Shown: piece by piece, positions 1,692-42,277 of the stretch | Layout: each line of letters begins with the position of its first letter | How positions within the stretch are numbered: the stretch's first letter is position 1 | Source: Patescibacteria group bacterium | GTDB lineage: Bacteria > Patescibacteriota > Patescibacteriia > Magasanikbacterales > GWA2-37-8 | Length of the DNA stretch: 64,000 nucleotides | Reading direction: 5' to 3' | Assembly (NCBI GenBank): GCA_035289165.1 | Contig: DATDYA010000008.1 | Location: forward strand, 572-64,571 | Translations under genes and position numbers: made by a program | The notes under the pieces: generated by a model | What the model was told of the DNA's origin: nothing | Database searches by the model: none | Seen by the model: the letters and a program-made list of their open reading frames with translations, nothing else

Positions 1692-2780
1692 TTATTCTTC
1701 CTGTGGCAAAGGCACTTCTTCGTCGGCTGGTTCGCCCGGATTGCCTTCTTCCTCGTCTGGCGCCTCGCCTCGTTCTACCACCTCCCAAACCTTGTCTCTA
1801 ATCTCGGCGATAAGTTTTGGGTTATCTTTTAAAAATTTCTTAGCCGTTTCTCTGCCGACTCCTAATTTTTCTTCACCATAATTGTAAGAATTACCTTTTT
1901 TATCAATTACTTTGTAGGTGACACCAGTATCAAACAAATCGCCAGATAAGGAAATACCCTCGTTATACATAATGTCGAATTCGGTGGTGCGGAACGGCGG
2001 GGCAACTTTGTTCTTAACAATCTTCACTTTAACGCGGTTACCAATGACCTTATCTCCCTGTTTAATTTGAGCGGCGCGGCGGATCTCAATCCGGATTGAA
2101 GAGTAGAATTTTAAAGCCACACCACCAGTCGTAGTTTCTGGGTTGCCAAAATACACGCCAATCTTCATGCGAGTCTGGTTAATAAAGATCAAAACAGTTT
2201 TGGATTTACTAATGACCGCGGTTAATTTTCGAAGGGCCTGACTCATGAGCCTGGCTTGTAAACCCATCTGGGCATCACCCATGTCACCCTCGATCTCTGC
2301 CTTTGGCACGAGGGCCGCTACGGAGTCAACGACGATTACGTCCACCGCGTTGGAACGAACCAAAGTCTCCACGATTTCCAAAGCTTGTTCACCGGTATCT
2401 GGCTGGGAAATTAAAAGTTCGTCAATTTTTATACCAATTTTTCTAGCATAATCTGGGTCAACCGCATGCTCAGCATCGACAAAAGCAGCAATGCCGCCCC
2501 GTTTTTGGACTTCTGCCACAACATGTTGAGCTAGTGTGGTTTTACCACTGGCTTCCGGTCCATAAATTTCAATAATGCGTCCGCGGGGCACGCCTTTAAT
2601 ACCAAGCGCGATGTCTAAAGACATACAACCGGTCGGGATAGCCTCAACCTGCATACTCGCCTTGCCTTCACCAAAAGTCATAATCGCCCCATCGCCAAAG
2701 CGGCTCTTGATCTGTTCGATCGCGCTTTCAGCGGCCTTCAATTTATTCTTTACCTCCTCACTAGCTGATCCTTTAGCCAT
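1692..2780 (-). CDS. recA: Recombinase RecA
   Basis: Walker [12 protein letters not shown]2 loop GNPETTTGG, the conserved RecA core and an acidic C-terminal tail. Confidence 0.95.
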
Positions 2781-2806
2781 ACGAATTTTAAATTAATAAA
2801 TTTTAA

Positions 2807-3511
2807 TTAGTTTGGTAGTAGGGTAATTTTTTCTCCGGCCACAGCCTGTGGTCTCGCGACCACATGTCGGGTAACCGTCGAAGTTTTACCATGCTTTTTC
2901 TTAACCGAAACAATGATTGTATTAACTCCGTTTTGTAAATCTAGGTGCGTTTCAAATTGGCCGCTATCGTTTACACGTACTTCTTGCCCGTTAATTGTCA
3001 GTGCTGTTTCTTTTTCTGTTTCACCTTGGATTAGTGCTGACAAAGTGTTGGCCACCAGTCCTTCTTCCGGCGAATAAAGAACTAATCTCGGTGGCTCAAT
3101 CACGCCTTTAATTTGCCAGGCTAGATAACCAACAAAAATAAAGATAAAGACACCGGCCACGATATACCGAAGAGTGAGGGAAAAGAAATTAAATCGTGAA
3201 TTACGAATGGACTGGTGGGGGTGAACGGTTTTAATATCTCGTAATCCGCCTTCGCATTTAAAATCTTTAGCTAGAGCCTTGGAATCCAATCCCACCGCCT
3301 TCGCATAGGCTTTAATATAGGCCAGGCGATAAGCTGTGGCCTGGGGGAGCCGAAAGTATTCGCAATCCTCAATCATGAGGAGGTGGTTTTTGGCGACAAA
3401 AGAATTTTTTGAAATGCTTTCTAAATCCAAACCAATGCGAATTCTCGCTTCCTTGAGTTCTTCACCAACGCGCTTGGTCTTCGCGATTCGTTTGTAACAA
3501 AACATGGTCAT
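2807..3511 (-). CDS. RodZ-like membrane protein (HTH_25 domain, one TM helix, DUF4115-like C-terminal domain). The start is probably an internal Met rather than the ORF's first Met.
   Basis: N-terminal LKEARIRIGLDLESIS...LPQATAYRLAYIKAYAKAVGLD matches the RodZ HTH_25 pattern. It is followed by a hydrophobic TM segment (YIVAGVFIFIFVGYLAW) and a beta-rich C-terminus. Confidence 0.55.
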   Translation of the reverse strand: MTMFCYKRIAKTKRVGEELKEARIRIGLDLESISKNSFVAKNHLLMIEDCEYFRLPQATAYRLAYIKAYAKAVGLDSKALAKDFKCEGGLRDIKTVHPHQSIRNSRFNFFSLTLRYIVAGVFIFIFVGYLAWQIKGVIEPPRLVLYSPEEGLVANTLSALIQGETEKETALTINGQEVRVNDSGQFETHLDLQNGVNTIIVSVKKKHGKTSTVTRHVVARPQAVAGEKITLLPN

Positions 3512-3515
3512 ATTT

Positions 3516-5786
3516 TTACTCTTTGAACACCGTGCCACCCGCATCCAAAGTTTGTTCTTCGTCCGACAATTCGAAAGACGCAGTTGGCATCATGTGTTCA
3601 GTAAAAACTTCTCTCGGTTTAGCGCCATCAGCAGGTCCTACTATACCAGCTTCTTCTAATTCGTCAAGCAGTCTGGCCGCCCGGGCATAGCCCACCTTCA
3701 TCCGTCTTTGCATGAGCGAAGCGCTGGCTTTTCCTGATTCGATTACCAGTTGTTTAGCTTCATTGAAAAGCGGGTCTTGGTCGTCGCTGCCACCACCGAA
3801 CATGTTTAGCGTGCCGCCATTTCCCCCGCCCTTACTAACAACCGATTCGTTGTAATTAGGTTCAGCGTTACCCTTCAAAAAGTCAACAATTCGTTTCATT
3901 TCTTCTTCGGAAACATAGGCGCCTTGGATGCGTTTTGGTTTAGACAATTCAGCTGTTAAGAATAGCATGTCGCCGCGCCCCAAAAGTTTTTCCGCCCCCG
4001 GGCAATCCAAAATTGTACGGGAATCAATAAGCGAAGCGACTGAAAAAGCGATACGAGCCGGGATGTTCGCTTTCATGAGACCGGTGATAACTTCAACGCT
4101 CGGGCGTTGCGTCGCAACAATAAGGTGAATACCAACCGCCCGCGCCATCTGGGCAATGCGGATAATGCCAGCTTCAACTTCGCTGGCCGCCATTGCCATG
4201 AGGTCAGCTAGTTCGTCAATGACAAAAACAATGTATGGCATTTTTTCAGTAGCCGTTTTGTTGTAAGATTGGATGTCGCGCTTACCGGAAGCGGCGAGAA
4301 GATCAAAACGACGTTCCATTTCCCCGATTGTCCATTTCAAAGCGTTAACAGTTTTTGCTGGGTCAGTAATAACTGGTGTTAGAAGATGAGGGATGCCGTT
4401 GTAAAGAGTCAGTTCGACTCTTTTGGGGTCAACCATAATGACCCGCAAAGTTTCTGGAGTGTTTTGGTAAAGTAAGCTAAGTAAAATTGTATTAATACAA
4501 ACGGTTTTACCAGATCCCGTGGCGCCCGCAATTAAAAGATGCGGCATTTTGGAAAGCCTCCCAAACCAGACAGTACCGGCGACATCTTTTCCCAATGCCA
4601 CCTGCAAGGTGTCTTCGCGATCTTTAAACTCTGGGCTTTCCAAGAGTTCGCGTAAAGTAACCATCGCTACTTTTTGGTTTGGAACTTCAATGCCGACTAA
4701 AGATTGGCCAGGAATGGGGGCCTCAATGCGAATAGGGTGGGCCGCCAAAGCTAAAGCCAGGTCGTTGCTTAAGGCCAAGATGCGGGTTAGCTTAATACCC
4801 TTAGCTGGTTTTAAAGAAAATTGCGTTACAGTTGGGCCCACTCGAACTTCTCCCATATCCACTTCAATGCCAAAGTTTTGTAAGGTATCCCGAATAATCT
4901 CCGCGTTGCTTTTAATATCTCCAGACGATGGTTTGGTTTTTGAGGTAAAGAGAAGACTGGTGTCCGGTAAAGCGAATGAGCTGTAATCTGGTAGTGGTAA
5001 TTCTTCCAATTGGCCTTCCTTAGCCGTTTCTTCCGTCGGGCCTCCAGTCTCTAATTCAGTTTTTCTTTCCAAAGATTTTCGTTCAAAGGCTCGCCGTTCT
5101 TCTTCCTCCTCTTCTAATTTTACGGTTTCCCATTCTTCGGTTTCTTCACTTGGTGTTTCTTCATAATCCCCTTTAATCTTAAATTCTACCTTTTCTTCCT
5201 TTTTAAAACGGTAGAAGAAATTTACCAGCTGCTGTCCAAGAAAACCGAGTATGAGAAAGAACTTCTTGTTTAAAAGTACTAATTGCGCCAAAGAAGTGTT
5301 AAAAATGAAAATGATTGAGATTAAAAGTAGAGCAATAAATATAACCAGACTACCCCAGTAGCCGAGGTAAGTCCCTAGTGGCCAGGCTAAAGCGAGGCCA
5401 ACCAGTCCACCACCATAGCCCTGCATGGCTAAATCCACCATTTCTTCCACTGCATTTTGTAGATGGACAAGGCCGTTGAAACTCAAAAAGAAGAGTATTG
5501 AGCCAAAAAAATGGGTGGGGCGATACTCGTAACTCAAATCTTTTATGATTAGCCCGGCGACAATGGCCAGGATGATTGGAAAAAAGTAGCGGACTTGGCC
5601 AAAGCCAATTGCGAGGAGCGAATCAATGAAGTGGCCAGCAATTCCCGCTAAATTAAAGAAGCTAAGGATAGACAAACCAGCTACCACAAAGAGGAAAATA
5701 GATAAAAGACCCCTGCCGATTTCAGGGTTTAGATTAATGCGTTCCCGCAAAGGTGGTCGCCCGCGACGTGATCTCGACATAATCAT
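3516..5786 (-). CDS. ftsK: DNA translocase FtsK/SpoIIIE
   Basis: N-terminal polytopic membrane region, a charged linker, an ATPase core (GATGSGKT Walker A) and a C-terminal gamma domain (MQRRMKVGYARAARLLDELEEAGIVGP). The start is probably an internal Met, because the ORF's first codons overlap the promoter of the divergent gene. Confidence 0.9.
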   Translation of the reverse strand: MIMSRSRRGRPPLRERINLNPEIGRGLLSIFLFVVAGLSILSFFNLAGIAGHFIDSLLAIGFGQVRYFFPIILAIVAGLIIKDLSYEYRPTHFFGSILFFLSFNGLVHLQNAVEEMVDLAMQGYGGGLVGLALAWPLGTYLGYWGSLVIFIALLLISIIFIFNTSLAQLVLLNKKFFLILGFLGQQLVNFFYRFKKEEKVEFKIKGDYEETPSEETEEWETVKLEEEEEERRAFERKSLERKTELETGGPTEETAKEGQLEELPLPDYSSFALPDTSLLFTSKTKPSSGDIKSNAEIIRDTLQNFGIEVDMGEVRVGPTVTQFSLKPAKGIKLTRILALSNDLALALAAHPIRIEAPIPGQSLVGIEVPNQKVAMVTLRELLESPEFKDREDTLQVALGKDVAGTVWFGRLSKMPHLLIAGATGSGKTVCINTILLSLLYQNTPETLRVIMVDPKRVELTLYNGIPHLLTPVITDPAKTVNALKWTIGEMERRFDLLAASGKRDIQSYNKTATEKMPYIVFVIDELADLMAMAASEVEAGIIRIAQMARAVGIHLIVATQRPSVEVITGLMKANIPARIAFSVASLIDSRTILDCPGAEKLLGRGDMLFLTAELSKPKRIQGAYVSEEEMKRIVDFLKGNAEPNYNESVVSKGGGNGGTLNMFGGGSDDQDPLFNEAKQLVIESGKASASLMQRRMKVGYARAARLLDELEEAGIVGPADGAKPREVFTEHMMPTASFELSDEEQTLDAGGTVFKE

Positions 5787-5845
5787 TTTGTTACGAATAT
5801 TATAGCACAGAGGCGAAAGTCGGACAAATAAAAGAACTACAGAGG

Positions 5846-5874
5846 TTGCCAAAACTAACCGGATGGTATATAAT
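5846..5874 (+). promoter_or_regulatory. Sigma70-like promoter TTGCCA-17-TATAAT for the C39-like peptidase gene
   Basis: Near-consensus -35 and a perfect -10 with 17-bp spacing. It ends about 20 nt upstream of the ATG at 5895. Confidence 0.5.
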
Positions 5875-5894
5875 AGGCGCCCTTATGAAAAATT

Positions 5895-6359
5895 ATGGCT
5901 TTGCCGTACTACAAACAAGAGACCAATTATACCTGTGGTCCAGCCAGCTTTCGCATGGTTATGGCTTCTTTGGGTTTTATCTATGATGAAACAGAATTAA
6001 AAAAATTGTTAAAAACCAGCAAAATTTGGGGTACTTTGCACAAAAGCTTCGTGGAAGCGGCAGAAAAACATAAGCTTAACTATGTCGTAAAAAGAAATAC
6101 GGAAGTAAACGAATTGAGGAAAGCCTTAAGAAAAAAGAAGCTGGCGATTGTCTGTTATGCCATGCCACCACACGAAATATATCATTACGCAGTGGTAAAA
6201 AAGGTTGGTCTAAAATATATTTATTTGTTGGATCCCTTCCTTGGCCCGAATTGCCAGTATTTACTTACTGACTTTGTAAAATTTTGGAAAAGTGACCCCA
6301 AACACGAAGGTGATGAGAGATGGTTTTTCGCCATTGAAAATAACAAGGCCGTGAATTAA
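5895..6359 (+). CDS. Standalone papain-like cysteine peptidase, C39-like domain
   Basis: Q-x4-TCGPAS catalytic-Cys motif (QETNYTCGPASFRMV) and a downstream HYAVV His motif. 154 aa with no ABC-transporter fusion. Confidence 0.55.
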   Translation: MALPYYKQETNYTCGPASFRMVMASLGFIYDETELKKLLKTSKIWGTLHKSFVEAAEKHKLNYVVKRNTEVNELRKALRKKKLAIVCYAMPPHEIYHYAVVKKVGLKYIYLLDPFLGPNCQYLLTDFVKFWKSDPKHEGDERWFFAIENNKAVN

Positions 6360-7678: not shown

Positions 7679-9241
7679 ATGCCAGTCGTAGAGTGGGGTC
7701 ATGATTTCGAACCTTATGAACAGGCGTCGGATTTTGAATTATTTAGGAAAACACCCAGTGAGCTTGCTCAAAAATTGAAGCAATTAGCCGATCGGGGCGA
7801 AGCAAGAGATTACCTAAGGCGAGCTTTTTTAGATCCGCGTAATATTGCGACGGTTAGCTATTATGAAAAATGGATGGTAAAGAAGGTTCAAGATATCATC
7901 GAAGAATTGGTTAAGGAAAAGGAGGAGGAATCTTGGGCACAGGGCGAACTGCCCGCCGGGTTAGCCGAAAGATATTCTGAAGAAGAACTAAAGCAATTAC
8001 TTTCTAGTTTGTTTTTTGTTCAACCTACCCAAGGCTGCGCCCACGCTTGTCCATTTTGCGCTTGGGATGCCCCTAAGGGAGTGAGGAGCACCATACCGTT
8101 TAATCAGTTTGCTAAACTAATGGAAAAGTACGGCGATGTTTTTAAAGATAATTGTATTGACTTGCACTTTGCTTCTGAGCCAGGTGATTATAAATACACG
8201 GATCCCGTAAGTGGTAAGGAGTATGATTATTCTGATTTACTATCCGTAGCCAAGAATTTTTTGAGCGGGACGGTCAATTCTTTTCTAACACGACGATCAG
8301 ATGATGAATGGCTCGAATATGTTGTCAAAGAAGGCGGTTTAAGAAGCCTGGATAACGCTACAAATCGTCGATTACAAAAACAAAAAACAAATGGGCGGGG
8401 CAGAGGTTTCAAAGGTGTTAAACATCACGCTGAAGGTGGGGACGAGAGGTTGCATACGCCAGGTATTGGTTTGAGTATTAAAAAAACAAGGAATTTAGTC
8501 GGTAAAGAGCGGGGTATTTATACACGAAAACCAGGTAGCATACTCACACCACGAGGTTATCTACATATTTTCCCCGGCGAGATACAAGATGTTTCACCGC
8601 AAGGACTAGTGGCTGTAGCAGTTGGGGAGTTGCACAGAATCGAAGAGGCCTATGAAAAATTAAAGCCGGGGGTCAAATTACAAGACGTAATGAGTGGTTT
8701 CGCAATTTATAAAATGTTTGACTTAAAACTCCTTCCCGATTTTAAACACGCTTTTGTAGCCTATACCGGGAACAGTAGTGACACCGGAATGGTTGTAGTA
8801 TATAGCCCGACCACTTATGAGATTACCGAGACGCATCCCTTTAAAATGACGTTAGATGAGTACAAAAAGAATTATCAATTATTGAAAAATAAATACTTTG
8901 AAGGCTATATGAAAGAGCCGATTTGGCCTGGAAAATATGAAGAAATTTTACCCGACATGGATTATAACCTGGCGATAGTCAAGCGGTTTTCTGACTTGTC
9001 AACAGATATGGGCTGGCTGACAATCGTTCAGAAGTATGTTCGCGAAAAAACTCAAGAGGTACACAGTATCATATTTTACAGGTTAAATCATGTGTTTAAA
9101 GCATATTTATTAACTGTTAAACCCAGTTTTACTAGTGATGTTATTGATTTGAATTGGCTGGAAAGGCAATTTTTAATCTTTTTGGGGTCGGACCAATTTA
9201 AAAAGATAGAAAAAGAAGGCTTTGTTCGAAAAAACTCTTAA
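7679..9241 (+). CDS. Hypothetical 520-aa protein with a radical-SAM-like CxxxCxxC motif
   Basis: TQGCAHACPFCAWD contains C-x3-C-x2-C. About 40 residues later, DLHFASEPGD resembles the SAM-binding GGEP motif. No other recognisable domain. Preceded by a 328-bp AT-rich spacer. Confidence 0.5.
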   Translation: MPVVEWGHDFEPYEQASDFELFRKTPSELAQKLKQLADRGEARDYLRRAFLDPRNIATVSYYEKWMVKKVQDIIEELVKEKEEESWAQGELPAGLAERYSEEELKQLLSSLFFVQPTQGCAHACPFCAWDAPKGVRSTIPFNQFAKLMEKYGDVFKDNCIDLHFASEPGDYKYTDPVSGKEYDYSDLLSVAKNFLSGTVNSFLTRRSDDEWLEYVVKEGGLRSLDNATNRRLQKQKTNGRGRGFKGVKHHAEGGDERLHTPGIGLSIKKTRNLVGKERGIYTRKPGSILTPRGYLHIFPGEIQDVSPQGLVAVAVGELHRIEEAYEKLKPGVKLQDVMSGFAIYKMFDLKLLPDFKHAFVAYTGNSSDTGMVVVYSPTTYEITETHPFKMTLDEYKKNYQLLKNKYFEGYMKEPIWPGKYEEILPDMDYNLAIVKRFSDLSTDMGWLTIVQKYVREKTQEVHSIIFYRLNHVFKAYLLTVKPSFTSDVIDLNWLERQFLIFLGSDQFKKIEKEGFVRKNS

Positions 9242-9261
9242 ACTTATCCACTGTTTTCCGG

Positions 9262-9290
9262 TTGACAAACCTCTTGGTTTTTAGTACTAT
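9262..9290 (+). promoter_or_regulatory. Sigma70-like promoter TTGACA-17-TACTAT upstream of rpoB
   Basis: Perfect -35, 17-bp spacer and a near-consensus -10. It begins 21 nt after the stop of the upstream gene and would give a leader of about 260 nt to the rpoB ATG at 9554. Confidence 0.5.
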
Positions 9291-9375
9291 TCTAGTACTT
9301 TGAAAACCAAGGCGTAAACAACCATTTTTTGGCTAGTTATAGCTAAAAGTCCGGTTGCGTCCAACCTCGCTTAGT

Positions 9376-9428
9376 GCAAGGTTTTACAAACATCGAGAAT
9401 AAATAGATGCGTACCTTGCTTTTTTTGG
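9376..9428 (+). promoter_or_regulatory. Attenuator-like hairpin plus U-run in the rpoB leader
   Basis: GCAAGGT...ACCTTGC inverted repeat with a roughly 30-nt loop, followed by T7. Further T-runs occur at 9471-9476 and 9499-9504. Confidence 0.3.
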
Positions 9429-9553
9429 CTAATCTTTAAGTAAAACTAATAAGCCCCATACCCAAGCGGCCTTTTTTGGTTTGTGGCTTTTGCCGGCTTT
9501 TTTAAAAAAATTAACTATTTTTTAAACTATTAACCTCTTAAAACGCACGTTTT

Positions 9554-12500
9554 ATGTCCATTTACAAGCACAAGCCGGTCTCAACCGACGCCCGCCGTTT
9601 CTTCACCGGCCGAGACAACGTTATGCCGTTGCCTGACTTGATTGAGCTCCAAAAGAACTCCTATGGTTGGTTCTTGAAGTTCGGGGTCAAAGAACTTTTT
9701 GAAGAAGTTTCCCCAATTACCGACTTCACCGGCCGCGATCTAGAACTTTATCTTGAAGATTACTATTTGGACGAACCACGTTTTGACGAAGTTGTTTGCC
9801 GTACTCGTAATATTACTTTCGAAGCCCCGCTTCGTATTACCGCTCGTTTGGTCAACAAGCGAACCGGTCAGTCTAAATCTCAAGAAATCTATTTGGGTGA
9901 AATCCCGGTTATGACCAACCGGGGTACTTTTATTGTTAACGGTATTGAGCGTGTTGTTGTATCTCAGCTTATTCGTAGTGCTGGTGCTTTCTTCACCGCC
10001 GAAAACGTTCGTGGTCGTCGTTACTATGGTGCCAAGATCATCCCGAATCGTGGAGCCTGGATCGAAATCGAAACGGACATGAATAACGTTTTGTGGGTAA
10101 AAGTAGATCGCAAAAGAAAAGTGGCTGCTACCTCTATCCTCCGTGCCTTTGGCTATGAGGGCGATGAAGAAATTAAAAAAATGTTTGAAGACGTTAATAC
10201 CAATCCTCACGTGGATTATGTTGACGCCACAATTAAAAAAGATTTGGCCAAGAGCCGCGACGAAGGTTTAATCGAGGTCTACAAGAGAATTCGTCCCGGG
10301 GATCTTGCGACAGCTGACAACGCCAAGAGTTTGATCGAAGCCATGTTCTTCAATTTCGAACGTTATGACCTTGGTCGTGTTGGTGTCTACAAATTCAACA
10401 CCAAATTTGACCTCGGTTACACTGAAGGAGATTTTGATCAAAAAGATAATCGAGTTTTAAGTCCAGAAAAATTATTACTTGTTTTAAAAGAAGTTGTCCG
10501 CTTGAACGTTACCCAAGAAGAACCAGATGATGTTGATCATCTTGGCAACCGCCGCGTTCGTTCAGTCGGTGAACTAGTCCAGAACCGTTTCCGTATTGGT
10601 TTAGCTCGCATGGAACGTATCATTAAAGATCGCATGAGTACTTATGACGTCGAGCAGTTAAGTCCTAATAAACTTATTAACGCCCGACCGGTGACGAGCG
10701 CGATCCGTGAATTCTTTATGAGTTCACAGTTGTCACAGTTCATGGACCAGACCAATCCTTTGTCTGAACTCGAACACAAACGCCGTTTGTCCGCTCTTGG
10801 CCCCGGTGGTTTGTCCCGCGACCGCGCCGGTTTCGAAGTGCGCGACGTGCACACGACACACTATGGTCGCATCTGTCCGATCGCTACCCCCGAAGGTCCA
10901 AACATTGGTTTGGTTAACCACCTAGCTAGTTATGCTCGGATCAACGAGTTTGGGTTTATCGAAACACCTTACCGTAAGATTTTGCGTGACGTAAACAACG
11001 ACCCAAAACTTTTGGTTGGTGAAATTTTACGCGGAGACATCGAGGGTATAAAAGATGGTGCCAAGATTACCGAAGAAGTGGCTAAGAAACTTGGTAAATC
11101 CACTTTAAAAACCATTCCGGTTAAACCCCGGATGACCAATGAAATTGTTTACTTAAATTCTTTTAAAGAAGAAAAAGTTATTACCGCCGCCGCTTCCACC
11201 AAGGTAGATCCGGATGGATATTTTGTTGACGAAACAATCGCCGCTCGCGTTAACGGTAAGGCCGGTGTCGCTAAAAGTGAAGATTTAGAATATTTGGATG
11301 TTGCCCCTCACCAAATTGTAAGCATCGCGACTGCTTGTATCCCTTTCCTCGAACATGATGACGCGACCCGCGCTCTCATGGGTACAAACATGCAACGTCA
11401 GGCCGTGCCGTGTATTAGTCCGGAACCACCATTGGTGGGAACCGGTGTTGAACGTGAAGCCGCTCTGTATACTGGCCACATCGTTATCGCGGATTGCGAC
11501 GGTGAAATCACTGAAGTCGATGGCAGTAAAATAGTTTTGACTGGCAAGAAAGGTGAAAAGTTTACTTACAATTTAAATAAGTTTATCCGCTCTAACTCTT
11601 CGACTTGTATCAACCAACACCCCAGTATTAATGTTGGCGACAAGATCAAGAAGGGACAGGTTTTGTCTGATGGTCCATCAGTCCGTGACGGTGAAATGGC
11701 TTTAGGCCGAAATGTTTTGGTCGGCTACATGGTCTGGGATGGCTTCAATTACGAAGACGCGGTTGTCATTTCCGAGCGCGTTGTGCAGAGAGATGCTTAC
11801 ACCTCCATCCACATTGAAGATTATAAAATAGATGTTCGTGAAACTAAACTGGGACCAGAAGTTGTGACTTCAGATATCCCGAATGTTAGTGAAGAAAAAT
11901 TAAAAAATTTGGACAGTGAAGGGGTTGTCCGCATTGGCGCTGAAGTAAAATCCGGCGACATTTTAGTTGGTAAGATTACTCCTAAAGGTGAGACGGAATT
12001 AAGCGCGGAAGAAAGATTGCTCCGCGCCATCTTTGGCGAGAAAGCTCGCGATGTGCGCGACTCCTCACTTTACTTAGAGCACGGTGAGCACGGAAAAGTA
12101 ATCGGCATTCAGATTTTCTCGGCTGAAGCGGGTGACAAATTAGAACCCGGGGTTATTAAACAAGTTCAGGTCACGGTCGCGGATATGCGCAAGGTCCAAG
12201 TTGGTGACAAAATGTCTGGTCGCCATGGTAACAAAGGTGTTATCTCTAAAGTAGTGCCGGTCGCTGACATGCCGTTCTTAGAAGATGGTACTCCACTCGA
12301 CATTATTTTGTCCCCACTCGGCGTTATCTCTCGTATGAACCTGGGTCAGCTTTTAGAAAACCATCTTGGTTTAGCCGCCAATGCTCTTGGTTACAAAGTA
12401 GCGACTCCGGTTTTGGATGGTATGAATGAAGAGCAGATTAAAACTGAATTAAAGAAAGCTGGTTTGCCAGATGGTGGCCAAGTCATCTTGTACGATGGAC

Positions 12501-31640: not shown

Positions 31641-32097
31641 ATTTATAAGTATATGAATTTATATAAATTGATGATACTACAAGTATAGCAAATTATATAA
31701 ATTATGTCAATAACCGTTATTAATCCCCCGTTTTTTGTTTAATTTATGGTAAAATTAAGATATTAAGTAATAGTATGTACAATTAGAATATGGATTTAAA
31801 AGAGCTTAAAAAAGAGAAAAAACAATACACCGTTTGGCATCTAGGATAGATGATTAATTTTGGCCTGAACAGAGAGAAGATTAAAATAAAGGAGCTAAAA
31901 AAGTATTGGTCAAAAATTCGTCTCGATCCTCACAAAAAGCGATACTTAGAATTCCTTTTACAATCTTAAAAATTATCCTCAGTTTAATATGTTAAAGTTG
32001 ACTAACCCCCTTTTTCTTGTTAATATTAGGTTATCGAGGGATATGGTTCTAGTTGAGTGCAAAGCTCCCAAGCTTAAAAAACTTAACCTTTAGCCAT

Positions 32098-32550
32098 ATG
32101 AAAATTAGAGATATTTTAGATCAAAAGATTGTCACGGTTCGAAAAGATACGACGTATGAGGAGGCGGCGAAGATTTTGCTCGACAACGAAGTGACGGGTG
32201 CTCCAGTTGTAGACAGTGAGGGAAAGTTGGTGGGCATAATCACGGAGAAAGATATTTTTAAAGTTCTTCTTCCGTATTACCAGAGTTATTACGAACACCC
32301 GGAGTATTATACTGACCTCGAAGAGCGAGAACTAAAGGCAAAAGATATCCGGACCATGAAAGTAGAAGTTTTCATGAGTAAGAACATTTCTAGTATTACT
32401 CCAGATGAACCAATCATGCGGGCTGGTGCCATAATGCTTGCGAGAAAAATCGGTCACCTACCAGTTGTTGAAAATGGCAAGTTGGTTGGAGTAGTTAGCG
32501 GGACAAAAATATTTCGTTTCGTTTTAAAAAACCAATTAAATAATAATTAA
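32098..32550 (+). CDS. Tandem CBS-domain protein
   Basis: Two CBS repeats (VTVRKDTTYEEAAKILLDNEVTGAPVVD... and VFMSKNISSITPDEPIMRAGAIMLARKIGHLPVV...). The start is placed at MKIRDIL. Confidence 0.75.
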   Translation: MKIRDILDQKIVTVRKDTTYEEAAKILLDNEVTGAPVVDSEGKLVGIITEKDIFKVLLPYYQSYYEHPEYYTDLEERELKAKDIRTMKVEVFMSKNISSITPDEPIMRAGAIMLARKIGHLPVVENGKLVGVVSGTKIFRFVLKNQLNNN

Positions 32551-35735: not shown

Positions 35736-36773
35736 ATGGTCACTTGGCAGGAATTAAAAGATAATCCCGAAGCTAAAAGTAAGTTGCAGAAGAAGCACGA
35801 TATCTATCGCTTTATCCGCGAGTTCTTTTGGCAAGCCGGTTTTGAAGAGGCCGTGACACCCATTGCTCGTACTTCGAGCGACCAAGAAAAATATTTGTCT
35901 CCCATGCCTTTGCAACTACATGAACCAAATGGCGAAGCCCACAACTATTTACTTATTACCTCACCAGAGATTGCTTTAAAAAAAATGCTAGTCGCTGGTT
36001 GGAACAAACTATTTCAACTGGCGCCAGTTTTTCGTGACTACGAAGAATTTGGCCATACCCACAATCCGGAATTTACCATGCTTGAATGGTACCGGGCCCC
36101 GGGTAGCATGGAAGACATTATGGACGATATTGAGCATCTGTTTAAAGATGTTGCTAGCAAGCTAGATGTTAAAAATTTAGTGTATAATGGGAAAGACTCT
36201 GTTGTCTCCGAGTCGTGGGATAGGCTTACTATGAAAGAAGTCTGGCAAAAGTACCTGGGCGTCAATCTAGACGATTACCTAGATCCTAGTTCAATACGTC
36301 AGTTGGCCGAATCCCGCGGCCACTCTATTGAAGTCGGAGAGAGTTACGAGAATATTTTTTACAAAATATTTTTAAATGAAATTGAAGGTCAGCTCGGAGT
36401 GGGAAAACCAATTTTAATATCTAATTACCCCGGTAAGATGTCGGCTTTTTGTCAGTATAACAACGCTGACCCTCGTTATGTCGAACGCTTTGAGTTATAC
36501 ATTAACGGTCTCGAACTAGCCAATGGCTACGGCGAGCTCGTTGACCCGGTTGAACAAGAAGAGCGTCTTAAAGACAACCAAATGTTTCGAAAGAGCGTTG
36601 GTTTGCCAGTTTACCCTTATGACGAAGACTTTGTTACCGCCCTAAAGTCTGGTCTACCGCCATCGGGTGGGGTCGCGCTTGGCGTTGAACGGTTGGTCAT
36701 GCTCTTGACCGGGGCAAAAAATATTAACGAAATAATTTTTGAATCAGCCAACGACCAATCTTTAAAATTATGA
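35736..36773 (+). CDS. epmA: EF-P--(R)-beta-lysine ligase EpmA (GenX/PoxA), a class II LysRS paralog
   Basis: Closely parallels E. coli EpmA blocks (LITSPEIALKKMLVAGWNKLFQLAPVFRDYEEFGHTHNPEFTMLEWYR; ERFELYINGLELANGYGELVDPVEQEER; GGVALGVERLVMLL). Like EpmA, it has no anticodon-binding domain. Confidence 0.8.
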   Translation: MVTWQELKDNPEAKSKLQKKHDIYRFIREFFWQAGFEEAVTPIARTSSDQEKYLSPMPLQLHEPNGEAHNYLLITSPEIALKKMLVAGWNKLFQLAPVFRDYEEFGHTHNPEFTMLEWYRAPGSMEDIMDDIEHLFKDVASKLDVKNLVYNGKDSVVSESWDRLTMKEVWQKYLGVNLDDYLDPSSIRQLAESRGHSIEVGESYENIFYKIFLNEIEGQLGVGKPILISNYPGKMSAFCQYNNADPRYVERFELYINGLELANGYGELVDPVEQEERLKDNQMFRKSVGLPVYPYDEDFVTALKSGLPPSGGVALGVERLVMLLTGAKNINEIIFESANDQSLKL

Positions 36774-37435
36774 AATTCCTTAAGAAGATCATTTTTATCC
36801 TTTTGGTTTTCGCTTTGTTAATCTCCGCTGGGTCATTACTAATTAGTCGCCATGTTTTGAAAGCCAGCCAAGGACGAATATTCGCTAATCATAGTGATCT
36901 GAAAGAGGCGGACGCTGTTATGATCTTGGGAGCAAAAGTTTATGAGGACGGCCGTCTTAGCTCTATTCTAATCGACCGCATCAAGACCGCTCTTGAGGTT
37001 TATAGAAATGGTAAGGCGAAGAAAATTTTGGTCAGCGGCGATCATGGCCGCAAAAGCTATGACGAGGTTAACGCAGTAAAGAGATATTTATTGGACGTGG
37101 AAAAAATTCCCGGCGAAGACATCTTTTTAGATCATGCCGGTTTTGATACTTACGATAGTCTTTATCGCGCCCATGACGTTTTTGAAGCTAAGAAACTAAT
37201 TATTTCTACTCAGTCTTTTCACCTGCCTCGGGCGGTATATATCGGGCAGAAGTTAGGGCTAGATACACAGGGGATTGTGGCAGATAAACAGACTTACCGC
37301 ACGGCGGTATATAATGAACTAAGAGAAAACCTGGCGCGTTGTAAGGCTTTTACTAACGTATTTTTCAAAGTTAAACCAAAGTTTGGAGGTTACCCTATAC
37401 CCATTAACGGGGATGGTAGAAAAAGTTGGGATTAA
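36770..37435 (+). CDS. SanA/YdcF/ElyC-family (DUF218) membrane-anchored protein
   Basis: N-terminal TM helix, then the DUF218 core (ADAVMILGAKVYEDGRLS...KILVSGDHG...YDEVNAVKRYL). Confidence 0.7.
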   Translation: MKFLKKIIFILLVFALLISAGSLLISRHVLKASQGRIFANHSDLKEADAVMILGAKVYEDGRLSSILIDRIKTALEVYRNGKAKKILVSGDHGRKSYDEVNAVKRYLLDVEKIPGEDIFLDHAGFDTYDSLYRAHDVFEAKKLIISTQSFHLPRAVYIGQKLGLDTQGIVADKQTYRTAVYNELRENLARCKAFTNVFFKVKPKFGGYPIPINGDGRKSWD

Positions 37436-37439
37436 AAAT

Positions 37440-37988
37440 ATGGAACAAGAATTTACTTTAAATATTTGTTTAGAGTGTAAAAAGAGGCAACCTAACTGTT
37501 GTCGACTTGGTATTCAATTAACCGTGGAAGATATTGAGAATATCCGGTCACTCGGTTTTGACCTCAAGGAGTTTTTGGAATTAAAGGATTACTCGACCAT
37601 CGACATTGCAGACTATGACGATTGGTGGAAAAAGGGTTTGGTAAAAGTTGAAGATAAAATATATAAAATTGTGGTAAAGAAAGATACTCGGGGCGAGTGT
37701 GCTTTCTTGAAAGATGAAAAAGGCTGTGTTTTAGGCGACAAACGGCCTTCGGTTTGTAAGATATTCCCTTTTTGGTTTAAAGAAGAAACTGGAAAGGTAG
37801 TTTACGAAGAGGGCGAGCCGTATTGTCTGCTAGAAAAAGAAGCCGTAGGAGTCTCCGACGCCCTCAAGGCAATCCAAGAAACCCCGGAGTCAGTCGAAGG
37901 CTATTATTCCGCCATGAAAGAAGACTGTCTTAGTAACCAAGTGGCCTACCGGAAAATTGTCGAGGAATTGTTGTCGGCAAAAGAGTAA
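37440..37988 (+). CDS. YkgJ-family cysteine-cluster protein (UPF0153, putative Fe-S or zinc binding)
   Basis: CLECKKRQPNCC followed by a second cluster CAFLKDEKGCVLGDKRPSVCKIFPF. 182 aa. Confidence 0.6.
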   Translation: MEQEFTLNICLECKKRQPNCCRLGIQLTVEDIENIRSLGFDLKEFLELKDYSTIDIADYDDWWKKGLVKVEDKIYKIVVKKDTRGECAFLKDEKGCVLGDKRPSVCKIFPFWFKEETGKVVYEEGEPYCLLEKEAVGVSDALKAIQETPESVEGYYSAMKEDCLSNQVAYRKIVEELLSAKE

Positions 37989-38027
37989 GTTGTGCACCGA
38001 ATCATTGACAAGCTATTGTAAAGTGAT

Positions 38028-38056
38028 AAATTGTAGCATATAATTTAAGTACTTTT
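38028..38056 (+). promoter_or_regulatory. Sigma70-like promoter TTGTAA-17-TATAAT upstream of ATP-grasp gene 1
   Basis: Perfect -10 and a reasonable -35 at 17-bp spacing. It leaves a leader of about 130 nt. Confidence 0.4.
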
Positions 38057-38188
38057 AACTGTACCACATCTCCCTATATGAATTCTCCTGGCGGAGATTC
38101 GGAGGACCCGCTTCCTAAAAATTTTCAGCTACCAATTAAGAGCCCAAGTCAACGATGAGTTTGCTTGGTTTTTTTATTTTATTTATTT

Positions 38189-39199
38189 ATGTCAGAAGTT
38201 GCGTCGAAAAAAATAGCGATTCTTTATAGTGAGGCCAAACGTGAGTACTTTCCAACTGAAGAGCAGTTTATTACCGAAGAAGAGGTATATAAGCGCGCTA
38301 AGATTGTTGCCCCGTATTTTCAAAAGCTCGGTTTCGAAACCGAGCTTATTCCTGGTAACCAGGATTTGGTAGATACGCTTAAAGCCAAGGGGCCGTTTGC
38401 TTTTGTTTTAAATCTAGTCGATTCCATCCGTGGTAAAGAATACCTTTGTCCAGTGATACCAGCTACTCTTGAACTCATGAACATCCCGTATGTGGGGACT
38501 GGCATGCTTGGTCTCGCCATAAATTCCAATAAGTTTCTAACTAAAACACTTATGGAACAGGCTGGCTTGCCCTTGCCACGTTTCCAATTATTTAGTAACC
38601 CGACCGACCCAATCGATCCACACCTTAAATTTCCCTTGATTTCAAAATTAAATGAAATCCACGGTAGTGTCGAAATTACTCGCGAGGCCGTCAGCGAAAA
38701 CGAGGCTCATCTCCGTGCGCGTTTAAAATCCTTGATGTCAGTTTATCACCAACCAGTCATAGTAGAAGAGTTTATTGTTGGTCGTGAATTAACAGTGTTC
38801 TTACTCGAGGGTGTAGTGAAAAAGGTATATGTCGCTGAAAAAGCTTTTAAACCCAGTGACGAGAAATACAAGATGGCGACTTTTGAAGCGGTCTGGGGGA
38901 ATGAAGATAGTTATGACGAAGTAAAAGCCGATGGCCACGGACTTTTAGAACAATACACCAGAACTGCCTTTGAAGTTTTAAAAATGGACGACTATGCCAA
39001 GTTCGATGTTCGTCTCGATGAGTCTGGCCGCTATTATTTTATTGACTGCAACGCCAATCCAGCCTTTGGCCCCTTAGAAAGCGATTGCGCAGTTAGCCAT
39101 GTTTTACGTTTGTATGGTGTAGATTTTGACGAAATTGTTCGACGTTTAACTCAAAATGTTACGCGGGTTAATAACGAAGTTTTGGTTACTACAGTCTAA
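38189..39199 (+). CDS. ATP-grasp ligase, D-Ala--D-Ala-ligase-like family (COG1181-like), paralog 1
   Basis: Pre-ATP-grasp block LNLVDSIRGKEYLCPVIPATLELMNIPYVGTGMLGLAINSNKFLTKTLMEQAGLPLP and ATP-grasp core VIVEEFIVGRELTV...YYFIDCNANPAFGP. It lacks the canonical Ddl GGxSxEHEVS substrate block. Confidence 0.7.
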   Translation: MSEVASKKIAILYSEAKREYFPTEEQFITEEEVYKRAKIVAPYFQKLGFETELIPGNQDLVDTLKAKGPFAFVLNLVDSIRGKEYLCPVIPATLELMNIPYVGTGMLGLAINSNKFLTKTLMEQAGLPLPRFQLFSNPTDPIDPHLKFPLISKLNEIHGSVEITREAVSENEAHLRARLKSLMSVYHQPVIVEEFIVGRELTVFLLEGVVKKVYVAEKAFKPSDEKYKMATFEAVWGNEDSYDEVKADGHGLLEQYTRTAFEVLKMDDYAKFDVRLDESGRYYFIDCNANPAFGPLESDCAVSHVLRLYGVDFDEIVRRLTQNVTRVNNEVLVTTV

Positions 39200-39217
39200 G
39201 TAATTATTTTATTCAAT

Positions 39218-40243
39218 ATGCGAATTGGTTTCACCTATAATGTTCGCCACATCGAAGTGCCCGACATCAAAAATCCTCAATATGTAAAGGAGGCGGAATT
39301 TGATACCCAAGAGACGATCGACGGAATTGCCAGCGCTTTGCGGGAACTTGGCCATGAGGTAATTTTTGTTGAAGCGAACGAAGATTGTTTTGAAAAGTTT
39401 AGGAAACTCCGCGGGACAATAGACATGGTTTTTAATATTGCCGAAGGAATAAACGGTGTTGACCGTGAAGCCCATATCCCAGCCATTTTGGAAATGCTTG
39501 GCATCCCATATACCGGACCTAAGCCTTTAGGCTATGCCCTCGGTCTAAATAAGGCCAAGGCTAAAGAAGTTTTTCAAGCTAATGGAGTCGCTACTCCCAA
39601 GTGGTTATTGGTAAATTCTGGAGAAGAGATTTCAAACGCCAACCTGTCATTCCCCGCAATCGCCAAGCCAGTAGGCGAGGGATCGAGCAAAGGAATTTGT
39701 GCCAAAAATTTAGTGGCCGATAAGGATTCTCTTGTAAAATTAACCAAGGAATTACTAGAAGAACACAGACAGGCAGTCTTGATTGAAGAATACTTACCGG
39801 GTCGAGAATTTACCGTTGCTATGCTTGGTAATCCAGTCAAGGTATTACCAATCATCGAACTTAAGTTTAATGATCTACCCGAAGGCATGCCGAAATTTGA
39901 TCACTATGAGGCCAAGTGGGTTTATGAGAATCCCAACCGTCCGTCGCCATTGGTGTGCCCAGCAGAAGAGGGTACCACGCTCGGAGATAAAATTAAAGAT
40001 ATTTGTCTACGCGCTTTCCAAGCTCTTGGTATGGAAGACTGGGCTCGGATCGATGTTCGTCTCGATGTCAAAGGCGAGCCGAGTATTATTGAAATAAATT
40101 GTCCGCCTGGTATTATGCCGGATCCCAAACAAAGCTCCCGCTTTCCTCTGGCCGCTCGTACAGCGGGGATTAGTTATCCACAAATGCTCGAGACTATTTT
40201 AATCTCAGCTTGTAAGAGGTATAATATTGCCTATACAAAATAG
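39218..40243 (+). CDS. ATP-grasp ligase, D-Ala--D-Ala-ligase-like family, paralog 2
   Basis: MRIGFTYNVR...AEFDTQETIDGIASALRELGHEV N-terminus, ILEMLGIPYTGPKPLGYALGLNKAKAKEVF, VLIEEYLPGREFTV and ARIDVRLD...IIEINCPPG. Confidence 0.7.
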   Translation: MRIGFTYNVRHIEVPDIKNPQYVKEAEFDTQETIDGIASALRELGHEVIFVEANEDCFEKFRKLRGTIDMVFNIAEGINGVDREAHIPAILEMLGIPYTGPKPLGYALGLNKAKAKEVFQANGVATPKWLLVNSGEEISNANLSFPAIAKPVGEGSSKGICAKNLVADKDSLVKLTKELLEEHRQAVLIEEYLPGREFTVAMLGNPVKVLPIIELKFNDLPEGMPKFDHYEAKWVYENPNRPSPLVCPAEEGTTLGDKIKDICLRAFQALGMEDWARIDVRLDVKGEPSIIEINCPPGIMPDPKQSSRFPLAARTAGISYPQMLETILISACKRYNIAYTK

Positions 40244-40254
40244 ATTATATATCC

Positions 40255-41184
40255 ATGCTTGCCACACGCTTGTCACCAAACTTAAAAAAGTTATCTGCCA
40301 ACTGTCCGTTTATCGCTCGGCAGTTTGTTCCTTCGGAATTAGAAACTGCCGACGAAGAAAACGTCTTCGACGATCCGCTGATGGAAGAGGAGCATACGGT
40401 TACCCGCGGTTTAGTATATAAATACGGAAATCGAGCCTTAGTTTTACTGACCATGAATTGTGCGGCTTATTGTCGTTTTTGCACTCGCCGCCGTAAAGTG
40501 TCAGATATTGAAAAAGGCATAATCACCGACAAGGATTTGGAAAATATTCGGAAGTATTTATTAAAGAATAAACAAATTAAGGAACTCATTTTTTCTGGTG
40601 GCGATCCTTTAACCGTCCCTCCGCTTTTGAAAAAAGCAATTAAGAAGTTGGCCGCCCTGCCACAAATTAAAATTATTCGGGTCGGAACCCGTTTGCATCT
40701 CTCAAATCCCGCCGCTGTTAACAAAGGTGTAATCGACGCTTTAAAACAAGTAAAAAACAAACCATTGTACTTAATGGTCCATTTCGAACATCCCGCTGAG
40801 TTGACTAAACCAGTTATAGCTGCGATTAAACGTCTACAAAGTGTTTCGACCATGTTATTTTCCCAGTCGGTTTCTTTAAAGGGTGTTAATGATGATGAAG
40901 AGACTCTTTACAAGCTATTTACCAGTCTAATCGAAATTGGGGTAAAGCCGTATTACCATTATCGCTGTGATCCAGTAAAAGGAGCGGAACACTTTATTAT
41001 GGATTTTGATAAAGAAATTGAAATGATGACCAATTTACGGAAACGACTTAGTGGATTGGCGATGCCTCTCTATATCATCGATTCCCCCAATGGTAGTGGT
41101 AAAGTCCCGGTTCCCCTAAATTTTTGGAAGTTCGATCGAAGCAACTTCAAAGATTTTAATGGTAAAAAACTGGAGTTGCTATAA
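40255..41184 (+). CDS. epmB: KamA-family radical SAM lysine 2,3-aminomutase, EpmB/YjeK-like
   Basis: EEEHTVTRGLVYKYGNRALVLLTMNCAAYCRFCTRR aligns with the EpmB block containing C-x3-C-x2-C. FSGGDP, HFEHPAE and a CDP..G..HF C-terminal motif are conserved. The N-terminus is shorter than E. coli EpmB. Confidence 0.8.
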   Translation: MLATRLSPNLKKLSANCPFIARQFVPSELETADEENVFDDPLMEEEHTVTRGLVYKYGNRALVLLTMNCAAYCRFCTRRRKVSDIEKGIITDKDLENIRKYLLKNKQIKELIFSGGDPLTVPPLLKKAIKKLAALPQIKIIRVGTRLHLSNPAAVNKGVIDALKQVKNKPLYLMVHFEHPAELTKPVIAAIKRLQSVSTMLFSQSVSLKGVNDDEETLYKLFTSLIEIGVKPYYHYRCDPVKGAEHFIMDFDKEIEMMTNLRKRLSGLAMPLYIIDSPNGSGKVPVPLNFWKFDRSNFKDFNGKKLELL

Positions 41185-41302: not shown

Positions 41303-42277
41303 ATGTTGACTGTCCAACAAGTGTTTGATCTGGGTTTAAAGATGGGTATGGTGGCTGACCCAAGAGGTGAAAAAATTGCCAAGAAAACCCTGGAGCGGGC
41401 AAAAAAAGAATATGAGGAATTAAAGAGCGACGAAAAAGAGTATTTTGACAAAGAACGTCTTATAAATCCATATTCGGATAGCCGTATTCATGCTGGAGAT
41501 CCAAAGACACCCGTAAAACGGGTGATGGCGGGTATCGACGTAGGGAGCGAAGAGATCCTTTTGGCTTCCCAATTAAACGAACGTGGCAAGGATATCGACT
41601 TAATCATTGCCCATCATCCGATTGGCCAGAGCCTGGCCGATCTCCACTCGGTCATGGAAATGCTAATAGACATTTACGTCGGCCACGGTGTGCCGGTTCA
41701 TGTTGCTGAAAAAGTCTTTGAAGATAGGATTAAAGAAGTCGGTCGAGGGGTGCACCCGATTAATCACTTTCAGATTATTGATACAGCCAACTTATTGAAA
41801 GCGAATCTAATTAATACCCATACTTTTACGGATAATTTAGTTGAAAAATATATCCACGAAGCTATTACTAAAGAAAAACCAGAAAATATTGGTGAATTAT
41901 TAAAATTACTTTTGAAAATTCCTGAATACCAGGAGGCAAAACGTCGCGGTTCTGGCCCTCGGCTTTTTACAGGTTCAAATAATCGTCGAGTTGGTAGGTT
42001 CATTGTCGATATGACTGGTGGCACTAGTCCATCACATCGGGTGTACCAAGAGTTGTCGCGAGCCGGCATCAGTACGATTGTTGGAATGCATATAAACGAA
42101 TCATCAACCGAAAAAGCCAATGAGTTTAACTTGAATGTAGTAATCGCTGGTCATATTTCTTCGGATTCTTTGGGAATGAATCTTTACTTAGACGAACTCG
42201 AGAAAAAAGGAATCGAAATCGTTCCGTGCGGTGGTTTGATCCGAGTTTCTCGTGTTAAAAAAAGTACCAAGAAATAA
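41303..42277 (+). CDS. Nif3-family dinuclear metal centre protein (YqfO/YbgI-like)
   Basis: IIAHHPIGQ and VIAGHISSDSLGMN metal-binding motifs. 324 aa. Confidence 0.65.
   Translation: MLTVQQVFDLGLKMGMVADPRGEKIAKKTLERAKKEYEELKSDEKEYFDKERLINPYSDSRIHAGDPKTPVKRVMAGIDVGSEEILLASQLNERGKDIDLIIAHHPIGQSLADLHSVMEMLIDIYVGHGVPVHVAEKVFEDRIKEVGRGVHPINHFQIIDTANLLKANLINTHTFTDNLVEKYIHEAITKEKPENIGELLKLLLKIPEYQEAKRRGSGPRLFTGSNNRRVGRFIVDMTGGTSPSHRVYQELSRAGISTIVGMHINESSTEKANEFNLNVVIAGHISSDSLGMNLYLDELEKKGIEIVPCGGLIRVSRVKKSTKK

Follow-up and report, generated by a model that had tools for sequence, protein, structure and literature searches.

A conserved gene cassette of a KamA-family aminomutase and two Ddl-like ATP-grasp ligases adjoins epmA in a Patescibacteria genome

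Six co-directional open reading frames (ORFs) at positions 35736-41184 of a 64,000-nt stretch of contig DATDYA010000008.1, from a Patescibacteria group bacterium, are predicted to encode, among others, the elongation factor P (EF-P) beta-lysine ligase EpmA, two ATP-grasp ligases that resemble D-Ala-D-Ala ligase (Ddl), and a lysine 2,3-aminomutase of the KamA family. The whole stretch is referred to as the window. An original prediction, made from the letters of the DNA, read these genes as one extended EF-P or beta-lysine pathway. Our analysis indicates that they are probably two juxtaposed units instead, and that the second of these is the version of a widespread, undescribed cassette found in the candidate phyla radiation (CPR). 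Unit 1 would consist of ileS-epmA-DUF218-ykgJ-like, epmA and the DUF218 gene having come to lie beside ileS in this sublineage; unit 2 would have a promoter, a leader ORF and a terminator-like hairpin of its own, followed by the B-type ligase gene, the A-type ligase gene and kamA. A link between beta-lysine and the ATP-grasp ligases is well supported; an extension of the EF-P pathway is not supported.

To define the cassette, one genome per species was scanned with an A-type alignment as the query, which returned 80 loci at 42-62% identity; their content was determined by de novo clustering and by comparing every ORF of these loci with the window proteins in phmmer. The A-type and B-type hidden Markov models (HMMs) used below were built from the two ligase sets of the scanned loci. 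The conserved unit is KamA together with an A-type and a B-type Ddl-like ATP-grasp protein, usually accompanied by an acetyltransferase of the GNAT family. KamA adjoined the ATP-grasp pair in approximately 60 of the 80 loci. Fifty loci carried A, B, GNAT and KamA, and further ones had A with KamA, A and B with KamA, or fused forms. In 57 loci, a GNAT of ~160 amino acids was encoded by a gene flanked by the B-type gene and kamA. AblB was rejected as the identity of this GNAT: no AblB model matched it, and its best NCBIfam match was RimI, at 47.6 bits. The bacterial hosts of the scanned loci were Ignavibacteriota/Melioribacter, Planctomycetota, Desulfuromonadales, Nitrospinota, Thermodesulfobacteriota and CPR, and the archaeal hosts Bathyarchaeia, Thermoplasmatales, Aenigmatarchaeota, Nanoarchaeia, Woesearchaeota and Methanosarcinales; the cassette itself recurs in Ignavibacteriota, Planctomycetota, Desulfuromonadales, Bathyarchaeia, DPANN and CPR. 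No description of it was found in the literature searched; the ATP-grasp survey of Iyer et al. (2009), which lay outside that literature, may mention the linkage.

Several members of the cassette also occur fused. KamA and the A-type ligase form a single ORF in L011, L013, L016 (8951-11059) and L053 (6091-8202), as well as in the database representatives P0396, P0397 and P0414. The B-type ligase is fused to the GNAT in L011 and L013, and to KamA in P0455; the two fused ORFs of L011 lie at 2460-4670 and 4700-6280. Both the single-ORF fusions and the adjacency of KamA and the A-type gene at the loci counted above support the proposal that beta-lysine (3,6-diaminohexanoate) feeds an ATP-grasp ligation.

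Five KamA-free loci from Thermodesulfobacteriota/'Deltaproteobacteria' (L049, L061, L066, L081 and L082) have a different supply module. Here, the three genes directly ahead of A-B(-GNAT) encode a homologue of deoxyhypusine synthase (PF01916, 320 bits), a protein of the arginase family and an arginine decarboxylase of the pyruvoyl type, e.g. at 7395-12583 in L049 and 5132-11427 in L082. A GNAT was not detected in L081, and an S-adenosylmethionine (SAM) methyltransferase gene follows in three of the five. The pathway composed of SpeY, SpeB and arginine decarboxylase is known to make homospermidine, and its SpeY is a deoxyhypusine-synthase homologue that does not modify protein (PMC13625781). 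The pairing of A-B-GNAT with either a beta-lysine synthase or a triamine pathway suggests di- or polyamine-like substrates. In L053 and L090, the cassette has a major facilitator superfamily or other transporter as its neighbour, a hint that the product is a small molecule.

Within CPR, a relative at 80% identity (L096) has exactly the gene order of the window, while other relatives have ileS-B-A-kamA (L088), ileS-ykgJ-B-A-kamA (L097), ileS-B-A'-GNAT-A-ykgJ-kamA (L089) or A-kamA (L090). In a contig-sharing test, the top 120 clusters each for A-type, KamA and EpmA were matched by the length of their longest contig; 27 of the 120 A-type clusters lay on the same contig as a top-120 KamA cluster, compared with none of the 120 EpmA clusters. 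An identical protein and the same gene calls as in the window were present on 13 public groundwater metagenome contigs, and relatives are publicly annotated as Magasanikbacteria, Kuenenbacteria or Patescibacteria. All six ORFs of the predicted co-directional block were found, and the block contains the following features:

35736-36773, + strand: epmA, predicted EF-P--beta-lysine ligase (TIGR00462, NF006828, PF00152)
36770-37435, + strand: DUF218 protein, SanA-like (PF02698, 77 bits)
37413-37988, + strand: YkgJ-like CxxCxxCC Cys-cluster protein (PF03692, 32.6 versus a cut-off of 23)
38005-38032, + strand: promoter-like site TTGACA-N16-TAAATT with an upstream TG (consensus match)
38078-38158, + strand: small leader ORF MNSPGGDSEDPLPKNFQLPIKSPSQR (in-frame motif in CPR relatives)
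38143-38175, + strand: terminator-like hairpin (CCCAAG..CTTGG) with T-run, between the leader ORF and the B-type gene
38189-39199, + strand: B-type Ddl-like ATP-grasp protein, CPR variant (PF07478; B-type HMM)
39218-40243, + strand: A-type Ddl-like ATP-grasp ligase with complete catalytic residues (PF07478; A-type HMM)
40255-41184, + strand: short KamA-family radical-SAM lysine 2,3-aminomutase, dependent on pyridoxal phosphate (PLP), 309 amino acids (2A5H alignment)

Only 11 nt separate the A-type gene from kamA. The reading of all six genes as one block holds for their direction, but they probably constitute two transcription units, since a 200-nt gap with a promoter, a leader ORF and a hairpin precedes the B-type gene. 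This gap holds the two best promoter consensus matches of the region 35.5-42.4 kb, and TTGAC[AG]-N15-TGnTAnAAT is kept in 10 of 11 CPR relatives. In 11 CPR loci with the architecture ileS-(ykgJ)-B-A, indels leave the reading frame of the leader ORF core, M-[DN]-x(0-6)-[ED]-D-P-[FLS]-[PNK], intact; the C-terminus of the ORF is variable. Outside the window, the leader region is present in L096 (6783-6968), L097 (5455-5646), L008 (8802-8936) and L089 (6878-7126), and also in L088, L098, L099, L100, L102 and L147; a search of the sequence ahead of the cassette in 80 loci outside CPR did not find the ORF. The hairpin and its T-run, just before the B-type start codon, are kept in all five aligned CPR leaders, with some two-sided changes. 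An Rfam search of the window at 35.0-42.5 kb and of seven cassette loci gave no credible match and no lysine riboswitch, the best match being weak (isrK, 19.9 bits, E 0.67), and a consensus RNA structure upstream of the hairpin was not found in five sequences (single-sequence fold z-score, -0.89). The leader ORF and the terminator-like hairpin may together be regarded as a candidate leader-peptide attenuator, and the presence of promoter, leader ORF and hairpin in the gap speaks for transcription of B-A-kamA apart from that of ileS-epmA-DUF218-ykgJ.

Neither ATP-grasp protein appears to be a Ddl, given that both fall below the Ddl cut-offs (on the best model, NF002378, the A-type protein scored 182.5 and the B-type protein 91.8 versus a cut-off of 243), that relatives occur in archaea, and that there are no mur genes adjacent, none being found beside the cassette in the window or in the CPR relatives L088-L090. 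Relatives of the A-type protein were present at 42-62% identity in at least 80 species of Bacteria and Archaea; those in Bathyarchaeia, Thermoplasmatales, Aenigmatarchaeota and Nanoarchaeia were 43-47% identical. Relatives are publicly annotated as 'D-alanine--D-alanine ligase', and the best PDB and NCBIfam matches of both proteins were all Ddl or Van, with DdlB structures closest (E ~1e-32). A grouping of the two ligases with true Ddl in a mur context was not observed.

The two proteins had been described as paralogous ligases; both are indeed Ddl-like, but they are not equivalent, one being a complete A-type and the other a degenerate B-type. The product of 39218-40243 scored 435.8 bits on the A-type HMM versus 279.6 on the B-type HMM, and that of 38189-39199 scored 167.8 bits on the B-type HMM versus 125.0 on the A-type HMM. 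In E. coli DdlB numbering, the A-type protein keeps K97, K144, S150, E180, E187, K215, R255, D257, E270, N272, G276 and S281. That the canonical Ddl substrate block is missing from both was confirmed for the D-Ala1 side, where E15, H63 and Y216 are replaced by A, E and W in the A-type protein and by T, D and W in the B-type protein. Because the A-type protein retains the region of Arg255 and Ser281, its amine partner may bear a carboxylate, and its acyl substrate may be cationic, to go by the invariant acidic residues of the N-domain. B-type proteins outside CPR retain the catalytic set, and those of CPR carry K215V, R255K, E270D, E148I/V and G149H, which are invariant in six orthologues; to judge from these residues, the CPR B-type protein is probably impaired or repurposed. 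We also scanned CPR metagenomes with a CPR B-type alignment as the query (80 loci, L098-L177) and classed loci by flank where at least 2.5 kb was available downstream. In 29 of the 50 loci with enough flank, the B-type gene stood alone, in varied neighbourhoods. Being so often alone, it may act independently of the A-type ligase and KamA.

The window KamA was aligned to 2A5H, the structure of Clostridium subterminale lysine 2,3-aminomutase (LAM), whose numbering is used here. It keeps CxxxCxxC, Arg134, Asp293, Asp330 and Lys337; in 2A5H, the Arg and the two Asp residues bind lysine and Lys337 binds PLP. As both Asp residues that bind the epsilon-amine of lysine are kept, the enzyme would be of the lysine type rather than the glutamate type, and we regard it as a predicted beta-lysine synthase; a glutamate 2,3-aminomutase was ruled out on the same grounds.

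The original prediction held this enzyme to be clearly recognisable as EpmB, which we could not uphold. It is without the C-terminal multimerisation domain (the 2A5H alignment ends near residue 345-361, and only 31 residues match LAM_C), and absence of this domain is the criterion for YjeK/EpmB (Bailly and de Crecy-Lagard, PMC2821294). Its score on the EpmB model TIGR03821, 203.2, is nonetheless far from the cut-off of 369.3, and it fails all other NCBIfam cut-offs as well (AblA_like_2, 239 versus 396; AblA TIGR03820, 218 versus 525.4; KamA subfamily, 191.1 versus 199.2). In phmmer comparisons, its score was 139 bits with E. coli EpmB and 176 with LAM, and 180-218 with the KamAs of the cassette. 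When EpmB was represented by the E. coli protein alone, 87 of 100 bootstraps of a neighbour-joining tree placed CPR KamA beside it, a grouping that is probably due to long-branch attraction. With broader sampling, drawn from a representative search of 1.8 billion proteins, the short CPR-type KamAs formed a third clade outside EpmB and LAM, and CPR with EpmB to the exclusion of LAM was recovered in just 62 of 100 bootstraps. The failed models, the phmmer ranking and the separate clade leave the EpmB label unproven. The CPR KamA orthologues are 61-86% identical and 308-321 amino acids long, and only in the window and L096 does kamA share a co-directional block with epmA (~3.5 kb downstream of it). 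Cassette KamAs outside CPR scored 434-496 bits on TIGR03820 (cut-off, 525) versus 237-252 on the EpmB model. Other fusions in the KamA family (P0436, P0475 and P0489) involve an LD-carboxypeptidase (S66), a class I methionyl-tRNA synthetase-like domain with a cupin, and a phosphotriesterase-family domain; they have no bearing on the cassette.

EpmA was correctly recognised by the original prediction. The 345-amino-acid protein exceeds both NCBIfam equivalog cut-offs (TIGR00462, 300.8 versus 286.9; NF006828, 274.5 versus 264) and consists of the class II core of lysyl-tRNA synthetase without the anticodon domain, PF00152 spanning residues 9-335; by these measures, epmA is predicted to be a genuine EF-P beta-lysine ligase gene. 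No efp was found in the window or in flanking loci by tblastn with E. coli and CPR queries, nor were the genes for S6, SSB and S18, and Lys34 was therefore looked at in sister genomes. Three sister CPR genomes have the order rpsF-ssb-rpsR-epmA-efp on long contigs (L092, 10001-12009; L093, 10001-11614; L094, 10001-11708). Their EpmAs are 47-51% identical to that of the window and have a G-[VI]-A-L-G motif in common with E. coli EpmA, and their EF-Ps have an N-P-G-K-G-A-A-F loop (PGKG) with Lys34. These features suggest that the CPR lineage has EpmA-type EF-P modification. No aminomutase or ATP-grasp gene lies near epmA-efp in the three genomes, so that the beta-lysine of CPR EpmA must come from an unlinked KamA. 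In the genome of the window, the cassette KamA, which is the sole candidate source seen, probably supplies EpmA also.

The proximity of epmA to the cassette is confined to the window and L096. At the cassette position of L088, L089, L090 and L097, epmA is missing, and neither epmA nor efp was found in the 80 CPR metagenome loci. Among the species-level loci, EpmA occurs in one (L008), 8 kb upstream of the cassette, and KamA is missing there. In this 62%-identical relative, the order is ileS-B-A-NIF3-ruvA (8937-11233), with a 210-nt gap at the position of the window's kamA; the gene has been lost or moved in L008. Of the conserved epmA/ATP-grasp/epmB neighbourhood that had been predicted, the ATP-grasp/KamA part stands and the epmA part does not. 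The contrast drawn with E. coli, whose epmA and epmB were called unlinked, is likewise half right: they are in different operons but only ~7 kb apart in K-12 (4374629-4383620, L091), where ecnAB, gdx, blc, ampC and frdDCBA separate epmB-efp from epmA. Given an epmA adjacency restricted to two loci, the absence of contig sharing between EpmA and KamA clusters, and the occurrence of the cassette in archaea, the extended EF-P pathway was not sustained.

The DUF218 gene had been named sanA. It is SanA-like, but reaches 115.9 on NF008092, whose cut-off is 363; it accompanies epmA in L096, is missing from L088, L089 and L097, and is probably unrelated to the cassette. The YkgJ-like gene is a recurrent accessory of the cassette: L089 has a homologue (149.5 bits) that separates the A-type gene from kamA, L096 and L097 have one immediately 5' of the B-type gene, and weaker ones are found beside the cassette in the archaeal loci L044, L057 and L062. 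Between kamA and ruvA, positions 41303-42277 encode a 324-amino-acid protein whose match to NIF3/DUF34 is only faint (26.8 bits, residues 62-107). The same gene occupies this position in L096, L088, L008 and probably L097; its product represents a divergent family resembling NIF3, which keeps its synteny with the cassette within this clade of CPR. A CBS-domain protein (32053-32550; also in L090) was rejected as a cassette member, its identity being just 27% and generic.

We propose the following scheme for unit 2. To judge from its substrate and cofactor residues, KamA would convert L-lysine to beta-lysine. The A-type ligase, whose catalytic set is complete, would phosphorylate a carboxylate and condense it with an amine by a Ddl-type acyl-phosphate mechanism, and the fusions and conserved adjacency point to beta-lysine as one partner in this condensation. 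Outside CPR, the B-type ligase would form a second amide bond and the GNAT would cap the free amine; the CPR B-type protein, having lost K215, R255 and E148, would probably no longer work in this way or serve another end. The most likely product is a small cytoplasmic amide that contains beta-lysine, i.e. a cationic, polyamine-like compound or compatible solute, which fits the replacement of KamA by the homospermidine module in Thermodesulfobacteriota.

A number of observations weigh against this scheme. The 80 loci are mostly from Ignavibacteriota, so the counts overstate independent events, and it is the cross-phylum cases and the fusions that carry the argument. In the CPR metagenome loci with flank, the 29 cases of B alone compare with 11 of B and A and 10 of B, A and KamA, while L008 has B-A without KamA; no GNAT homologue was found anywhere in the window. 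CPR KamA is not in the clade of the LAM-type cassette KamA found elsewhere, and the CPR arrangement may accordingly be convergent or a replacement. The chemistry assigned to every member would follow from family membership and context alone.

A broader reading can be offered tentatively. An undescribed pathway shared by CPR, DPANN, Bathyarchaeia, Ignavibacteriota, Planctomycetota and Thermodesulfobacteriota might make new amides of beta-lysine or polyamines, under attenuator control in CPR, with one KamA feeding EF-P too. Its products might be, for example, beta-lysyl oligomers or conjugates that act as polyamine surrogates or osmolytes in organisms of minimal metabolism, and a new nascent-peptide attenuator (M-D-L..E-D-P-F-P leader) might sense the product, lysine or EF-P status.

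Other explanations place the ligases in different pathways. They could elaborate the beta-lysyl group on EF-P or another translation factor, or beta-lysylate a protein without EpmA. Such a role would agree with epmA sharing one co-directional block with the ligase genes in the window and L096, with the PGKG loop and Lys34 kept in CPR EF-P, with the YjeK/EpmB-like C-terminal truncation of CPR KamA and its 87 of 100 neighbour-joining bootstraps with the single EpmB reference, with the deoxyhypusine-synthase homologue that adjoins the ATP-grasp pair in Thermodesulfobacteriota, and with the prolines of the leader peptide. We consider it improbable nonetheless. The epmA adjacency is not conserved (L088-L090, L097, the metagenome loci and the cluster test), sister CPR genomes have epmA-efp without ATP-grasp or KamA, and archaea, from which EF-P and EpmA are absent, also carry the cassette. 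The deoxyhypusine-synthase homologue is of the SpeY type, for homospermidine and not protein modification (PMC13625781), CPR KamA falls outside the EpmB clade with broader sampling, and the transporter by the cassette in L053 and L090 hints at a small molecule. Still less likely is a peptide-directed system, in which the upstream small ORF would encode a scaffold or precursor modified by the ligases, and KamA would supply or install a beta-amino acid. As analogues we take microviridin synthesis, with MdnA, two ATP-grasp ligases and a GNAT, and the LysW/LysX amino-group carrier system. The conserved acidic E-D-P-[FL]-P ORF directly upstream of the ligase genes in 11 CPR loci would suit such a system, and two ATP-grasp proteins with a GNAT recall microviridin clusters. 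Yet the ORF is confined to CPR, being absent from the 80 other cassette loci, its C-terminus varies, a terminator-like hairpin follows it as in attenuator leaders, and the ligases are of the Ddl type, not of the RimK, MdnB/C or LysX type.

It is very unlikely that the ATP-grasp proteins are peptidoglycan enzymes, i.e. Ddl or D-Ala-D-X ligase paralogues that merely neighbour epmA and kamA. The Ddl and Van matches, the public annotation of relatives, and the omega-loop, Arg255 and Mg-binding motifs kept by the A-type protein would favour this, but both proteins are below every Ddl cut-off with Glu15, His63 and Tyr216 replaced, the 43-47% identical relatives include archaea without murein, no mur genes are nearby, and the ligases are consistently linked, and in some loci fused, to KamA and GNAT. 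Equally hard to credit is that the gene order is incidental in a compact genome, with no functional link among the genes. CPR genomes are gene-dense and co-directional, the synteny of ileS, NIF3 and ruvA is likewise kept among close relatives, and the CPR B-type gene is often alone; against this stand the fusions in four archaeal loci and several database representatives, and an adjacency that holds across phyla amid otherwise unrelated flanking genes. Collectively, the evidence leaves two juxtaposed units, with the second a CPR version of the cassette, as our preferred explanation.

To our knowledge, the only roles of beta-lysine in primary metabolism are EF-P modification, the osmolyte N-acetyl-beta-lysine and lysine fermentation. 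A cassette that couples beta-lysine synthesis to two amide ligases would imply a further beta-lysine-derived compound, made by many uncultured lineages, among them ultra-small CPR and DPANN cells with very few biosynthetic genes. Hundreds of public 'D-alanine--D-alanine ligase' annotations, archaeal ones included, would be corrected. In Magasanikbacteria-type CPR, the aminomutase that serves an EpmA-type EF-P system would be other than a canonical EpmB, and a compact candidate leader-peptide attenuator would be added for CPR, in which we know of almost no cis-regulation.

The cassette resembles several known systems in part. In the AblA/AblB pathway to N-epsilon-acetyl-beta-lysine of methanogens and some bacteria, a lysine 2,3-aminomutase gene also adjoins a GNAT gene; LAM genes are found grouped with ablB, and yjeK is grouped with efp (Bailly and de Crecy-Lagard, PMC2821294). 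In contrast to that pathway, the cassette adds two Ddl-like ATP-grasp proteins, even fused to KamA and GNAT, and the window is without a GNAT and has a KamA of a short, divergent type. With the E. coli EpmA/EpmB/EF-P system (YjeA/YjeK), the window shares what appears to be a true epmA and an aminomutase truncated at its C-terminus like YjeK, but the conserved partner of that aminomutase is an ATP-grasp ligase rather than efp or epmA. The SpeY homospermidine cluster is represented in the five Thermodesulfobacteriota loci by SpeY, a SpeB-like ureohydrolase and pyruvoyl arginine decarboxylase directly 5' of A-B-GNAT; the text of PMC13625781 has no mention of ligase partners, and the window has KamA instead. 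With the Ddl family, the A-type protein shares its fold and acyl-phosphate catalytic residues, whereas the cassette ligases have replaced D-Ala1 residues, occur in archaea and have genes for KamA, GNAT or polyamine synthesis as their partners. The family also has members without a role in the cell wall, such as MysD, an enzyme of mycosporine-like amino acid synthesis. Finally, the Ngg/AsnO pathway, as reported by Sagot et al. in 2010, uses a bifunctional GNAT and ATP-grasp protein to make the osmolyte N-acetylglutaminylglutamine amide (NAGGN), which offers a precedent for an acetylated peptide solute formed by these two kinds of enzyme. In that pathway, too, an acetyltransferase and an ATP-grasp enzyme cooperate and are sometimes fused, and the ATP-grasp::GNAT fusion of L011 is similar in architecture; the cassette differs in having another ATP-grasp subfamily, two ligases, and a radical-SAM aminomutase as the supplier.

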